Source of the DNA: a virus
UHGV virus genome: UHGV-0117107
Reading direction: 5' to 3' (one strand)
Length of the DNA stretch: 17,495 bases
The notes under the pieces are model-generated. The model was not told the origin of the DNA. It saw nothing but the letters and a program-made list of their open reading frames with translations, and did no database searches. Below, one piece after another: positions 12,762 to 16,125 of the stretch. How positions within the stretch are numbered: position 1 is the first letter of the stretch; every line of letters begins with the position of its first letter. Position numbers and translations under genes: made by a program.

Positions 12762-13334
12762 TTAACGACCATAACGAGCATTGTTCAATATTCTTGACAC
12801 ATAGGTTCGTCCAGTCTTTTTGTATGCTTCTTGAGATTCGAGCAACATAGCATCTGCCTTATCAGATAATCTTGAAGCATCTTCGAACATTTTATTATAC
12901 TCCTTAGCATCTGCTGTTTTGTTCTGTGCAGAAGCTATAAATCTTGAAACTGCGTTTTTACCAAGTTTCTTGCGCTGCTCTTTAACCTGATTCCACTTTG
13001 CATCAGCAACATCACTAGCTTTTGATGCTGCATCAACCTTTTTAGAATAATCTTTTACTGCTGATTTTTTGGCATCTACTTTCGCTTTCTTTATGTCGGC
13101 TTTTGCTTCTCTTAAAGAAGCCTTAGCTGCATCTCTTTGGATCTTATTACCTTTTCGAATAGCTCCAATACCGTTCAACTGACCAGAATTCCTAGCTGCT
13201 TTACGAGCTTCTAATCCATCAGCTCTGGCTTTCTTAGAGGCTTGTCTAAAGGTCGGCTGATCGCTTCTCCTTCTAACTCCCCACTTCATGCCTTTTACAC
13301 CGTAGTGCATTAATTTGTCATCATAGTATCCCAT
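12762..13334 (-). CDS. Paralogue P4 of the YHxGxKGxKWGxRR family (190 aa): N-terminal module plus Lys/Ala-rich predicted helical region
   Basis: The N-terminus is MGYYDDKLMHYGVKGMKWGVRRR. SD AAGAGGTGAAAATTCAAAATG. The rest is highly basic (AKADIKKAKVDAKKSAVKDYSKK). The C-terminal KKTGRTYVSRILNNA resembles TKGREYASRMLETT in P1. Confidence 0.7.
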   Translation of the reverse strand: MGYYDDKLMHYGVKGMKWGVRRRSDQPTFRQASKKARADGLEARKAARNSGQLNGIGAIRKGNKIQRDAAKASLREAKADIKKAKVDAKKSAVKDYSKKVDAASKASDVADAKWNQVKEQRKKLGKNAVSRFIASAQNKTADAKEYNKMFEDASRLSDKADAMLLESQEAYKKTGRTYVSRILNNARYGR

Positions 13335-13363
13335 TTTGAATTTTCACCTCTTATCTCAAATAG

Positions 13364-14500
13364 TTATGTGTTCCCGGACAGCATCCCAATGATTTCTCTA
13401 TCCGATAGTTTCGTGTTCGGATGTTGTTTACGATAATTATTTATCGCTTTTGTGTTAAAAGCATATGATACTCCTACTGGAACAGTTGCTCCCAAAGCAT
13501 ACGTAGCTCCCTTTTTTGAGCCAGTTATTATTTTGTTGACGTAGTCTTCAGCTTTCTGTATTTTCTTAGCTTGATCAAGATTCTTTGAAATCTCATCAAC
13601 CGTTAATTCTCTAAAATTAGTTACAGAAATCTTTCCTTTCGCATCAAATACTATGAGAGGATTTTTTGTCTTGTAGTCATTAAACTTCATATCGTTAATG
13701 TCTTGAATAGCATTATATCCTTTTGATTTCATAGCACTATAAAATGTTTTGGATGAATATGAATCATGATTCCCAGCTAATTTAGAATTGAAATTTTCAT
13801 ACAGTTTTGATAACTCACTATCTGTATACGTTCCGAATTTAGCAAATCTTATAGGCTTTTCATTCGAACTTATAGAGCTTGGTAGATTATGTACATACTC
13901 TGCGAACTTTTTATCATTCTTATAAAGATCTTTGAATACTTTCTTCGCATTATTCTTAGAAGCAACTTTGACATCATCTTTAACTAATAAAGACATCACA
14001 TATGCTTTTCCAGTCTGTTGATATCGTTCTCTACCAAGTTTACCTGCATATTTTATGTTATCGGTTTTCTTGTATGAAGCGAAGAAATTATCGTATAACT
14101 TTCCTCCGGTATCTTTCATCTCTACTCGTTGCAACAACTTTCCAGACTTTATAGTTTTATCACAGTAATCTTTAATGTACTTATTTGTTGCATATGCAGC
14201 TATCGAAGCAACTGTGATACCGGCTGTTATGGCTATGATTTTCTCAGTTTTGATACGTCTATCAGCCGCCATCTTAGCCTGTTTAGGACTCATCCCTTTG
14301 CTAATATACTTAGATTCAATCCTCGATCTGTGACTCGATCTATTTGTGCTCTTATCGGATTCGTTTTGGTATTTATTCTTTCCAGCATTAGTGAGAGAAC
14401 CGTCTTTATTTTGGTAACGTCTTATTCCCCATTTCATGCCTTTTACACCGTAATGGTAGAGTTCATCTGTAGAAGTTATTCTTGAAATTGCATACTCCAT
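13364..14500 (-). CDS. Paralogue P3 of the YHxGxKGxKWGxRR family (378 aa): N-terminal module, one hydrophobic helix, C-terminal domain shared with P2
   Basis: The N-terminus is ...TDELYHYGVKGMKWGIRRYQNKDGSLTNAGKNKYQ. The hydrophobic segment is IIAITAGITVASIAAYA (aa 88-104). C-terminal motifs FYSAMKSKGYNAIQDINDMKF..YKTKNPLIVFDAKG align with P2. SD AAGAGGTAGGTGAGTCAAAATG. Confidence 0.7.
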   Translation of the reverse strand: MEYAISRITSTDELYHYGVKGMKWGIRRYQNKDGSLTNAGKNKYQNESDKSTNRSSHRSRIESKYISKGMSPKQAKMAADRRIKTEKIIAITAGITVASIAAYATNKYIKDYCDKTIKSGKLLQRVEMKDTGGKLYDNFFASYKKTDNIKYAGKLGRERYQQTGKAYVMSLLVKDDVKVASKNNAKKVFKDLYKNDKKFAEYVHNLPSSISSNEKPIRFAKFGTYTDSELSKLYENFNSKLAGNHDSYSSKTFYSAMKSKGYNAIQDINDMKFNDYKTKNPLIVFDAKGKISVTNFRELTVDEISKNLDQAKKIQKAEDYVNKIITGSKKGATYALGATVPVGVSYAFNTKAINNYRKQHPNTKLSDREIIGMLSGNT

Positions 14501-14517
14501 TTTGACTCACCTACCTC

Positions 14518-15576
14518 TTAACTCAAATACTTATCAAGTTTACGGTTCACATAAGAATCGCACTCCGACACACTCTTCGTTCCGAGCTTAGATACGAAAC
14601 CAACTGTATTAGCTCCGATTTCCTTAACGATTCTTTCTGAATTGTATTTTCGATACAGCTTGTCTACAATTTTAGGATTCGCTTCGGTTACAGACTGAAG
14701 TTTCACCGAATCTGTATCAAACACAATCATAGGTCTTTTCGCATGATAACTTGAATACTCCTTATCGTTATAGTCAAGTAAAGCATTATAACCTTTCTTC
14801 TTTAACTCTGAGTAGAAACGATTTTGTGCAGCTATCTCTTGTTGATTATGGTTTACAAGGGATAGATTCAGAGCCTTATAGATAGCCACCTTTTCAGAAT
14901 TTCTAAGTTTACTTGGATCTTTCTCCAAAGCATTTTGAGCTTGTTTAAATAGAACCTGTTGAGTAGGTCGCCGCATCTTCTCTTTAGAGTCAGCTATCGA
15001 AGCCTCTACATTCTTCTTAAACTCTGGCTCTTTCAATAAGTTTGCGGTTATGTAGCCAGCGTTCTCATCTGACGGAACTTTCAACTTCTTCACAGTTTCC
15101 AGTTTCAACTGATAAACCTTCATATTATTGCTTTTATCTCTTAGAGATTTTGCAACGTTGAAATCTTCCTCACTGCCGGTTGCCTCAGCCTGTTTCTCAG
15201 CACGTCTTGCATCCGAAGCAGCTCTACTCGTAAGATTCTTACCAAATAATCCGAGATACTTATCCATGTCTTTCTTTTTATATGTAGCGTAGAATGCGAA
15301 ATTCTCGAATTCTTTTGAAGTCTGGATTCGAGCGAATGTAGTACCTTTTCTTAAATATGTATCAACGTACTGCTTACCTGTGACTTGAGTTTTGACAGTG
15401 TTTTTTAATTCAGAAACTTTCATACTCATTAACGTAGTCTTTTTCTGTGTGATATGAGTATCTGAAGAATTCTGATATCGTTTCTTACCAGATGGTGTCA
15501 ATGTTCCGTCAGCATACTGATATCTCCTAACACCCCACTTTTGACCTTTAACGCCGTGATGATAAAGTTCTTCCAT
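14518..15576 (-). CDS. Paralogue P2 of the YHxGxKGxKWGxRR family (352 aa): N-terminal module plus C-terminal domain shared with P3
   Basis: The N-terminus is MEELYHHGVKGQKWGVRRYQYADGTLTPSGKKRYQ. The C-terminal FYSELKKKGYNALLDYNDKEY..YHAKRPMIVFDTDS aligns with P3. The start lies only 3 nt after the P1 stop and the SD is weak, which suggests coupling. Confidence 0.7.
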   Translation of the reverse strand: MEELYHHGVKGQKWGVRRYQYADGTLTPSGKKRYQNSSDTHITQKKTTLMSMKVSELKNTVKTQVTGKQYVDTYLRKGTTFARIQTSKEFENFAFYATYKKKDMDKYLGLFGKNLTSRAASDARRAEKQAEATGSEEDFNVAKSLRDKSNNMKVYQLKLETVKKLKVPSDENAGYITANLLKEPEFKKNVEASIADSKEKMRRPTQQVLFKQAQNALEKDPSKLRNSEKVAIYKALNLSLVNHNQQEIAAQNRFYSELKKKGYNALLDYNDKEYSSYHAKRPMIVFDTDSVKLQSVTEANPKIVDKLYRKYNSERIVKEIGANTVGFVSKLGTKSVSECDSYVNRKLDKYLS

Positions 15577-15579
15577 AAC

Positions 15580-16125
15580 TTACTTACCACTTAGCGCTTT
15601 GATGGCTAAAGCAATGCTTAATGCCGACCCGGTTACTGCTAAAACATCACCGGTGGTTTCTAGCATTCTACTAGCATACTCGCGTCCTTTCGTGGTTTTT
15701 TGAGGAGCAAACATATCATTATATTGTTTCTCCAAAAGAGCTCTATTAATCTGATCACGCATTTCTTTATCGGTCATGTTGCTTAAGTCCATCTTTTGTT
15801 TCGGATTATTTCTGATAGACTTATCGGTCATGGTCTTTATATTACGGCTCAGTCCAGCAGTAGCATCGGTCAAAGATTTGGTTCTTTCCAAGTCTTCTTT
15901 AACATATCGTCTAGCATCTGCTATGTTGTCAGTTCGACCGTTCTTTTTAGACTGCTTATAATAAGTACCAGTAGACTCATCATACTTATTAAATTCTTTT
16001 TCTCTAGAGTCTCTTTCATATCTCTTCTGACCTTTTTCAGTAAGAGTACCATCCTTGTTCTGGTATCTTCTTACTCCCCATTTCATGCCTTTAATTCCAT
16101 GATGATAGAGTTCATTATTGTCCAT
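15580..16125 (-). CDS. Paralogue P1 of the YHxGxKGxKWGxRR family (181 aa): N-terminal module plus C-terminal hydrophobic helix
   Basis: The N-terminus is MDNNELYHHGIKGMKWGVRRYQNKDGTLTEKGQKRYE. The C-terminal segment is VLAVTGSALSIALAIKAL (aa 161-178). SD GGAAAGGAGGTAATTCAAAATG lies inside the 3' end of the upstream gene. Confidence 0.7.
   Translation of the reverse strand: MDNNELYHHGIKGMKWGVRRYQNKDGTLTEKGQKRYERDSREKEFNKYDESTGTYYKQSKKNGRTDNIADARRYVKEDLERTKSLTDATAGLSRNIKTMTDKSIRNNPKQKMDLSNMTDKEMRDQINRALLEKQYNDMFAPQKTTKGREYASRMLETTGDVLAVTGSALSIALAIKALSGK

Follow-up and report, generated by a model that had tools for sequence, protein, structure and literature searches.

The virus genome UHGV-0117107, a stretch of 17,495 nt that is referred to as the window throughout, carries four tandem genes (P1 to P4) between its head-tail connector gene and the gene for the large terminase subunit. 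All long genes of the window lie on the minus strand, and near the starts of P1–P4 four similar stretches of DNA, the boxes, encode the motif (E)LYH[HY]G[VI]KG[MQ]KWG on this strand. These boxes are the coding sequence of a DUF7211 peptide and, across the lineage of related phages, very likely repeated sites of homologous exchange of the genes as cassettes. In the order of transcription the locus comprises the following genes:

16115..16480, minus strand: head-tail connector gene (Pfam Phage_connect_2), the upstream flank, overlapping the P1 start by 11 nt
15580..16125, minus strand: P1, 181 amino acids (aa), the conserved "core" cassette, with the motif, a helical body, and a C-terminal hydrophobic helix rich in small residues
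14518..15576, minus strand: P2, 352 aa, with the motif and a body homologous to P3 (29% identity over ~290 aa; phrog_7502)
13364..14500, minus strand: P3, 378 aa, with the motif, a long helix with a hydrophobic stretch, and an alpha/beta body at residues ~112–310
12762..13334, minus strand: P4, 190 aa, with the motif and a Lys/Ala-rich helical body, the variable slot adjoining the terminase gene
10985..12718, minus strand: large terminase subunit gene, the downstream flank of P1–P4

The genes abut, with gaps of 3–43 nt between the cassettes. A 96.5-kb human-gut contig matches the window at 99.9% identity. The head module of the window is shared with Lactococcus phage 1706, with Faecalibacterium phage FP_oengus, and with a large group of actinobacteriophages; the source of the window is a 1706/Oengus-type siphophage of the human gut. 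The N termini of P1–P4 all match the 25-residue family model of Pfam PF23847 (DUF7211, cut-off 27 bits), the core of which, (E)LYHHG[VI]KGMKWGVRR, is often prolonged by YQNKDGTLTxxGKKRY. The first-pass annotation of the sequence had marked the four boxes as direct repeats, and each of its strings was found exactly where it had been placed:

16076..16113, minus strand: box P1, codons 5–17 of P1, encoding ELYHHGIKGMKWG; DUF7211 match of 41.7 bits
15533..15570, minus strand: box P2, codons 3–15 of P2, encoding ELYHHGVKGQKWG; DUF7211 match of 27.1 bits, borderline over the 27-bit cut-off
14427..14464, minus strand: box P3, codons 13–25 of P3, encoding ELYHYGVKGMKWG; DUF7211 match of 40.4 bits
13279..13310, minus strand: box P4, codons 9–19 of P4, encoding MHYGVKGMKWG; DUF7211 match of 42.8 bits

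A repeat search returned the boxes as one direct four-copy family of 36 nt, with 72–89% identity to the P4 copy and a spacing of 1148, 1106, and 543 nt; the spacing of 1.1–1.5 kb given earlier is thus wrong for the last interval. A 29-nt degenerate consensus of the boxes has four sites in the 17.5-kb window, all read on the plus strand, and none in 200 shuffles, and it detects no fifth copy in the window even when three mismatches are allowed. Pairwise identity between the boxes over 48 nt is 65–81%, and the longest exact runs are 20 nt between P3 and P4, 18 nt between P1 and P3, and at most 12 nt for the remaining pairs.

The boxes had also been described as conserved at the DNA level, which did not hold in the window. 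In our codon test, synonymous codons were drawn for each peptide from the window's own codon usage, and the simulated identity was compared with the identity observed for the six box pairs. The pairs share 171 identical nucleotides over 39 nt compared with 170.9 expected, 207 over 48 nt compared with 205.3, and 270 over 75 nt compared with 275.9, so that identity is no higher than the peptide and codon usage predict, an outcome that the first-pass annotation had itself named as counting against its idea. The nucleotide similarity of the boxes in the window is fully accounted for by selection on the peptide and codon bias, and the agreement between observed and expected identity indicates that the boxes do not form an element of their own at the DNA or RNA level. 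As DNA, the repeats are unremarkable, being the footprint of a conserved peptide. An AGGAGGT..TCAAAATGG sequence upstream of three of the four starts is the general translation-start context, present at many unrelated genes, and two candidate families of cassette-specific upstream repeats (D9 and D14) were rejected for this reason. An RNA element was likewise rejected because no Rfam match was found at expectation (E) values up to 1.

Cassette exchange in related phages

The window was compared with 80 IMG/VR loci whose terminase is 77–80% identical. The 81 loci contain 173 motif matches, all on the terminase strand, of which 172 were taken as genes; three loci have none and the rest have one to five. 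The gene bodies behind the motif form 36 clusters. Nearly all loci have a P1-like core body upstream of the terminase gene, about half have a second common body immediately downstream of it, and the other clusters are sporadic. Clusters c2, c3, c4, and c6, the last of which includes P3, change sides between genomes, lying before the terminase gene in some and after it in others. The closest relatives have P1-P2-P3 in common and then diverge, and their cassette counts are 2, at least 4, and 5. The arrays, given as the lengths of successive proteins, are:

Window: 181-352-378-190 aa
L089: 185-352-378-218-266 aa
L081: 167-352-378-269-243 aa, then the contig end
L099: 170-352-378-196 aa; present in two independent collections
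L090–L095: 188-352 aa, then a reverse-strand gene

Among cultured phages, the Rhodococcus phages ReqiPepy6 and ReqiPoco6 carry eight and seven motif genes, phage 1706 has a single open reading frame (ORF), ORF7, with two motifs, and FP_oengus has gp69. The expectation of the first-pass annotation that related phages would differ in cassette number is borne out by the 0–5 per IMG/VR locus, the 2–5 in close relatives, and the eight versus seven in the Rhodococcus phages. As a separate observation, a gene of 350–358 aa on the opposite strand beside the terminase gene replaces further cassettes in L090 (8628–9704, minus strand) and in FP_oengus (L087, 5806–6858, minus strand); it has no significant Pfam match, the L090 copy has no PADLOC match, and it may be an inserted accessory gene.

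The positions at which related arrays part company were read relative to the boxes. Loci L007 and L009 are 98.5% identical on both flanks, and L009 has one extra cassette, which is flanked by a 160-nt direct repeat that takes in the 3' tail of the gene before, the intergenic spacer, the ATG, and the box. At the corresponding junction of L007, the variants of the left copy continue through the box and those of the right copy follow afterwards. The window itself is 90% identical to L089 and 92% identical to L099 from far upstream to position 13270, ~9 nt beyond the P4 box, and homology with both resumes only from the terminase gene, which defines a further feature of the window:

13270..13278, minus strand: mosaic junction, at which the 90–92% homology with L089 and L099 ends just past the P4 codons for GVRR, to resume at 12732

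A single mismatch in 43 nt separates the P4 box from its L089 counterpart, compared with a background identity of 64.5 ± 8.4% (99.9th percentile 95%) for boxes heading different bodies. Four different bodies, those of the window, L089, L081, and L099, follow one and the same 41-nt P4-type box, and past residue 22–24 these bodies are unrelated or distantly related. ReqiPepy6 and ReqiPoco6, which were sequenced separately, differ by two indels of exactly one cassette each, and in both the box of the shorter genome aligns to both flanking boxes of the longer one, with the partner switch within the 41-nt box.

A count of match ends over all locus pairs gave 190 internal right ends of matches of at least 250 nt and at least 88% identity, 76 of which sit 0–100 nt past a box start, a zone that makes up 2.3% of the sequence. 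The raw histogram of end points was not used alone, because alignments run through conserved islands, and junctions were counted only if the box identity exceeded background or the two-sided alignments overlapped. The box-associated ends fall into eight or more independent classes of junction, each joining different body clusters, and in 3–6 of these classes the box identity is clearly over background.

Boxes within one genome are also more alike than codon usage predicts. Same-genome box pairs from 60 distinct loci have 828 identical synonymous codons compared with 641 expected from the codon usage of the locus (z about 10, with loci that are non-independent). Some individual cases are clear-cut. 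In L029, L031, and L060 the box upstream of the terminase gene and the box downstream of it match without a difference for at least 41 nt (57 nt in L060), three amino acid replacements included, whereas the two boxes of the sister loci L033 and L039 remain distinct from each other. The same 97-nt stretch of ribosome-binding site, ATG, and box stands on either side of the terminase gene in L020, and L067 has an identical 57-nt stretch. The earlier proposal that the boxes recombine with one another thus finds support in the relatives, where boxes of the same genome have been homogenized by gene conversion. These comparisons indicate that the boxes are recombinationally active in the lineage, though the copies in the window show no recent event.

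Every cassette opens with the same 40–60 nt in the same frame and orientation, and this shared start creates patches of near-identity between otherwise dissimilar genes. Homologous exchange at these patches has recurred across the lineage, and the events documented above are one-cassette indels, exchange of the body while the box is kept, movement of bodies across the terminase gene, and box-to-box conversion. In the mechanism that we propose, the partners would probably be co-infecting phages, prophages, or sister genomes, and the route homologous or relaxed (annealing-type) recombination. Since every product of such an exchange would be in frame, new combinations would be viable at once. The relatives illustrate how phages diversify an accessory array, with a short coding tag that keeps swaps in frame and allows cassettes to be gained, lost, relocated, and converted around the essential terminase gene.

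Several results weigh against this mechanism. No pair of boxes in the window shows excess DNA identity at P < 0.1 in the codon test, the window has no trace of recent box-to-box conversion, and its longest exact runs of 18–20 nt are short for efficient RecA-type recombination. For cassette 4 of the window and L081 the box identity is 69%, equal to background, which places the junction upstream of the box, and this case was rejected as a box junction. The P3 cassette, 97% identical in L081, has its borders close to its start and stop codons, and homology between the window and L090 stops at the P2 stop. The raw end-point histogram overstates the enrichment, as BLAST matches extend through any conserved island, many of the loci are interrelated, so that counts and z-scores are non-independent, and most of the relatives are metagenome assemblies that are possibly chimeric at repeats.

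The codon test, the cassette-4 junction with L081, the bounds of the P3 cassette, and the end of the L090 homology at the P2 stop are what would be expected if the boxes were a passive by-product of peptide conservation, with illegitimate recombination occurring anywhere and selection retaining intact genes. However, several junctions are intragenic, at or within the box, and the box there belongs to the upstream segment of high identity. The identical box copies of 41–97 nt in one genome, next to unconverted sisters, require homology-driven exchange, and the exact one-cassette indels with alignments overlapping on the box have the signature of unequal crossing-over, which together make the passive explanation improbable. 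Assembly chimeras, which would arise where assemblers switch strains at shared k-mers such as the boxes, could be suspected because the relatives are mostly metagenomic contigs and the exact stretches of 41–97 nt are within assembler k-mer range. The array of the window is, however, the same in at least five assemblies, which come from several samples and two pipelines, the L099 array occurs in two independent collections, and the same junction pattern is seen in the cultured, separately sequenced ReqiPepy6 and ReqiPoco6, which excludes chimeras as a general explanation and makes them a very unlikely source of the mosaic junctions. A cis-acting nucleic acid element overlapping the gene starts (a regulatory RNA, translation signal, or packaging site), although suggested by the regular placement in one orientation at gene 5' ends near the terminase gene, is barely credible, as synonymous positions vary as codon usage predicts, Rfam gave no match at E values up to 1, the ribosome-binding context is common to many unrelated genes of the phage, and the unit conserved across relatives is the peptide, with a mean nucleotide identity of 64%.

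Exchange at the boxes thus remains our preferred explanation, in a qualified form. Breakpoints inside or at the boxes, which the first-pass annotation had proposed as a check, are present for L007/L009, for the window compared with L089 and L099, and for ReqiPepy6/ReqiPoco6, but not for cassette 4 of L081 or the bounds of the P3 cassette; from the alignments, box junctions appear to be frequent but not universal. Similarly, the recombination proposed for the array is supported by the cassette numbers, box junctions, and conversion in relatives, whereas the extra DNA conservation claimed along with it is absent from the window.

Candidate role of the DUF7211 proteins

The P1 family has more than 7,800 homologues (the best 120 being 66–96% identical) and the P3 family more than 2,900; among the matches listed, none is named other than as "hypothetical protein" or has a Pfam domain besides DUF7211. 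A profile of the four N termini of the window matched 36,795 clusters (50% identity) at E values up to 0.001, and its top-scoring matches have 2–5 motif copies each, every copy heading a new module, as in a 1335-aa protein with five. DUF7211 is found both in gut phages of the 1706/Oengus type and in many phages of Gordonia, Arthrobacter, Streptomyces, and Rhodococcus. Searches of P1–P4 against NCBIfam, PADLOC, and PDB sequences gave nothing useful, the sole match being a weak one of P1 to a phytoplasma membrane protein (E value 0.008). Neither MuF (Phage_Mu_F) nor another known anchor domain was found in P1–P4, for which DUF7211 is the sole Pfam match. A literature search returned no paper on DUF7211, and none on DUF7211 among the work on packaged or injected phage proteins.

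Single ORFs with 2–5 DUF7211 modules include P0241 (five modules), P0242, P0250, P0254, and phage 1706 ORF7 (L097, 2501–3889; two modules). In multi-module ORFs a recurring context, for example HSAIDEMQEVLMHYG or QDAFDTEEFLAHHG, stands before the internal motifs and might indicate a site of processing.

In the model of P3 the motif region has a predicted local distance difference test (pLDDT) score below 50, and the alpha/beta body at residues ~112–310 has a pLDDT of ~90; the model of P1, with a mean pLDDT of 61, was too low for a fold search. Foldseek with P3 gave weak support for toxins, with the best support for a pre-ejectosome protein. In a viral structure library the P3 fold is present in several paralogues per actinophage, with a weak match to "PolyVal ADP-Ribosyltransferase." The bodies of P2 and P3 are tentatively predicted to have an ADP-ribosyltransferase-like fold. 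In P3, R125 (at least 90% conserved) and S142 (the consensus residue) both lie on strands, and the invariant D267/D270 lie just past strand 264–266; these are candidate catalytic residues, in the order of an R-S-E-type site. No sequence-profile match of P2 or P3 to an ADP-ribosyltransferase family was found in Pfam at E values up to 5 or among PDB sequences. Elsewhere in the family, in ReqiPepy6 gp013 (L096, 1487–3082) and in gp13 of Gordonia phage Fazel (L088, 5933–7606), a LigT/2H phosphoesterase domain is followed in the same protein by an internal DUF7211 motif and a P1-like body. Both genes directly precede the terminase gene, and the Fazel protein is annotated as "RNA ligase."

Domains of the ADP-ribosyltransferase and 2H kinds are characteristic of phage polyvalent proteins, which are predicted to be packaged and injected, and Alt of phage T4 is a packaged ADP-ribosyltransferase (PMC5512222). 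On the basis of domain content and gene order, we tentatively suggest that DUF7211 could be a shared docking, address, or processing tag for variable virion-delivered proteins, which would be split versions of polyvalent proteins. A broader and somewhat more speculative possibility is that DUF7211 is the universal tag of a very large polymorphic effector system of at least 36,795 sequence clusters, in which modules with the 25–40-aa tag, whether encoded singly or as units of a polyprotein, would be loaded into the capsid and injected with the DNA, and in which the DNA of the tag would double as a recombination joint for trading effectors in frame. If the tag is a virion-loading signal, common human-gut and actinobacterial phages would harbor a large and so far unstudied repertoire of injected proteins, including some whose ADP-ribosyltransferase fold is toxin-like, and the tag would offer a simple sequence handle for finding them and a possible means of loading chosen proteins into phage particles. 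The universal-tag version, if true, would describe a phage counterpart of polymorphic toxin systems that is built on a short linear motif and not on a delivery domain.

Alternatively, the DUF7211 proteins could act as late membrane proteins in the infected cell, in superinfection exclusion, lysis control, or assembly chaperoning, with the motif binding a host or membrane partner. The conserved C-terminal hydrophobic helix of P1, the internal one of P3, the annotation of some DUF7211 homologues as "membrane protein," and the absence of a match in the phage-defense library PADLOC are in line with such a role. We nevertheless consider it unlikely, as the genes lie inside the connector-terminase-portal operon in every relative, the homologue in the same slot of phage 1706, ORF7, is annotated as "structural protein," the body domains are of kinds found in injected polyvalent proteins, and one fold match is to a pre-ejectosome protein. 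P1, which is just upstream of the terminase gene in most relatives, was also considered as a small terminase subunit; this role was dropped, since many unrelated bodies are headed by the motif, which is also found 3' of the terminase gene.

Comparison with known systems

Among DUF7211 phages, 1706 ORF7, FP_oengus gp69, and ReqiPepy6 gp013 and gp015–gp021 share the motif, strand, and head module of the window and lie either between the connector and terminase genes or in the interval from the terminase to the portal gene. Each phage has its own number of cassettes and its own set of bodies; the 1706 ORF joins two modules, and in ReqiPepy6 gp013, unlike in the genes of the window, the motif is placed after the 2H phosphoesterase domain.

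In the polymorphic toxins CdiA-CT and Rhs, which have "orphan" modules, a conserved stretch (VENN, PxxxxDPxGL) marks the point at which toxin modules are swapped. The DUF7211 arrays resemble them in the short conserved peptide before variable C-terminal bodies, the tandem arrangement, and in-frame replacement via homology of the motif, and the trait of a conserved motif followed by variable C-terminal domains is present in the form of 36 body clusters behind one motif. In contrast to CdiA-CT and Rhs, the conserved part is N-terminal and ~20–40 aa long, has no large delivery domain, and stands in a phage head module. No cognate immunity genes lie between the cassettes, because the genes abut, and no small ORF was found in the 3–43-nt gaps. 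Tail fibers and tailspikes exchange modules at conserved N-terminal anchors, and lambdoid phages have comparable "boundary sequences." As in the tail-fiber anchors, a conserved 5' coding segment serves as the homologous crossover point and variable 3' parts are swapped in frame; unlike there, several tandem anchor copies are present per genome, permitting copy-number change and intragenomic conversion.

In T4, the internal proteins and Alt carry a capsid-targeting sequence, and T-even phages have a hyperplastic internal-protein locus (reviewed in PMC3012670 and PMC9958956). The likeness lies in several unrelated small proteins with a short N-terminal tag at a variable locus. On the T4 side, Alt is a packaged ADP-ribosyltransferase and the internal proteins are delivered with the DNA, whereas packaging of the DUF7211 proteins is putative. 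The DUF7211 motif, moreover, has no sequence similarity to the T4 tag and no demonstrated cleavage site, and it belongs to a siphophage with an S78 protease-capsid fusion. Polyvalent and MuF-linked polymorphic proteins (Iyer et al. 2017, PMC5512222) have in common with the DUF7211 proteins the head-module neighborhood and similar effector-type domains (the predicted ADP-ribosyltransferase-like fold and the 2H phosphoesterase). Long proteins of 2–5 modules are seen in relatives but not in the window. The DUF7211 proteins differ from the MuF-linked ones in being without MuF and in that most modules are encoded singly, with a tag copy in every gene.

Genomic neighborhood

Upstream of the array, the order of transcription is a 114-aa protein (phrog_4259), an HNH endonuclease, and the connector (Phage_connect_2), followed by P1–P4; after P4 come the large terminase, an 81-aa crAss001_48-like protein, a collagen-like protein, and the portal, and after the portal a fused S78 protease/HK97-type capsid protein, tail genes, and an endolysin. 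The shared block of HNH endonuclease, connector, terminase, portal, and protease has already been recorded in a preprint (10.1101/842583).

Within the array, P2 starts 4 nt past the P1 stop, and in other phages a P1-like module and the next module are fused in frame (P0283). One further short repeat adjoins P3:

13346..13367, minus strand: 22-nt element 3' of the P3 stop, 91% identical to 14513–14534 (the last P2 codons and ribosome-binding site), out of frame

These 22 nt are either the scar of a cassette insertion or a remnant of P2/P3 paralogy; for comparison, the extra cassette of L009 is flanked by a clear scar of 160 nt.

The 81-aa ORF directly 3' of the terminase gene (10650–10895, minus strand) matches Pfam PF21825, "crAss001_48 related protein," with 72.6 bits and is named "Sequestin" in the annotation table; its slot is taken by a DUF7211 cassette in many relatives. 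The collagen-like protein of 198 aa (10035–10631, minus strand), with Gly-X-Y repeats, is encoded between the terminase and portal genes, and its gene contains an internal tandem duplication of 111 nt (10151–10261 and 10259–10369, 77% identical). The S78 prohead protease and HK97-type major capsid protein are fused in one 581-aa ORF (6654–8399, minus strand), as in 1706, FP_oengus, and actinophages; the same gene is called at 645 aa in the 99.9% identical L082, indicating that the true start may be further upstream. Many long contigs (L001–L080 and L082) start 1–4 kb upstream of the terminase gene, L082 doing so ~250 nt before the phrog_4259 gene, and these shared contig starts suggest a fixed physical genome end, consistent with HNH-assisted cos packaging.

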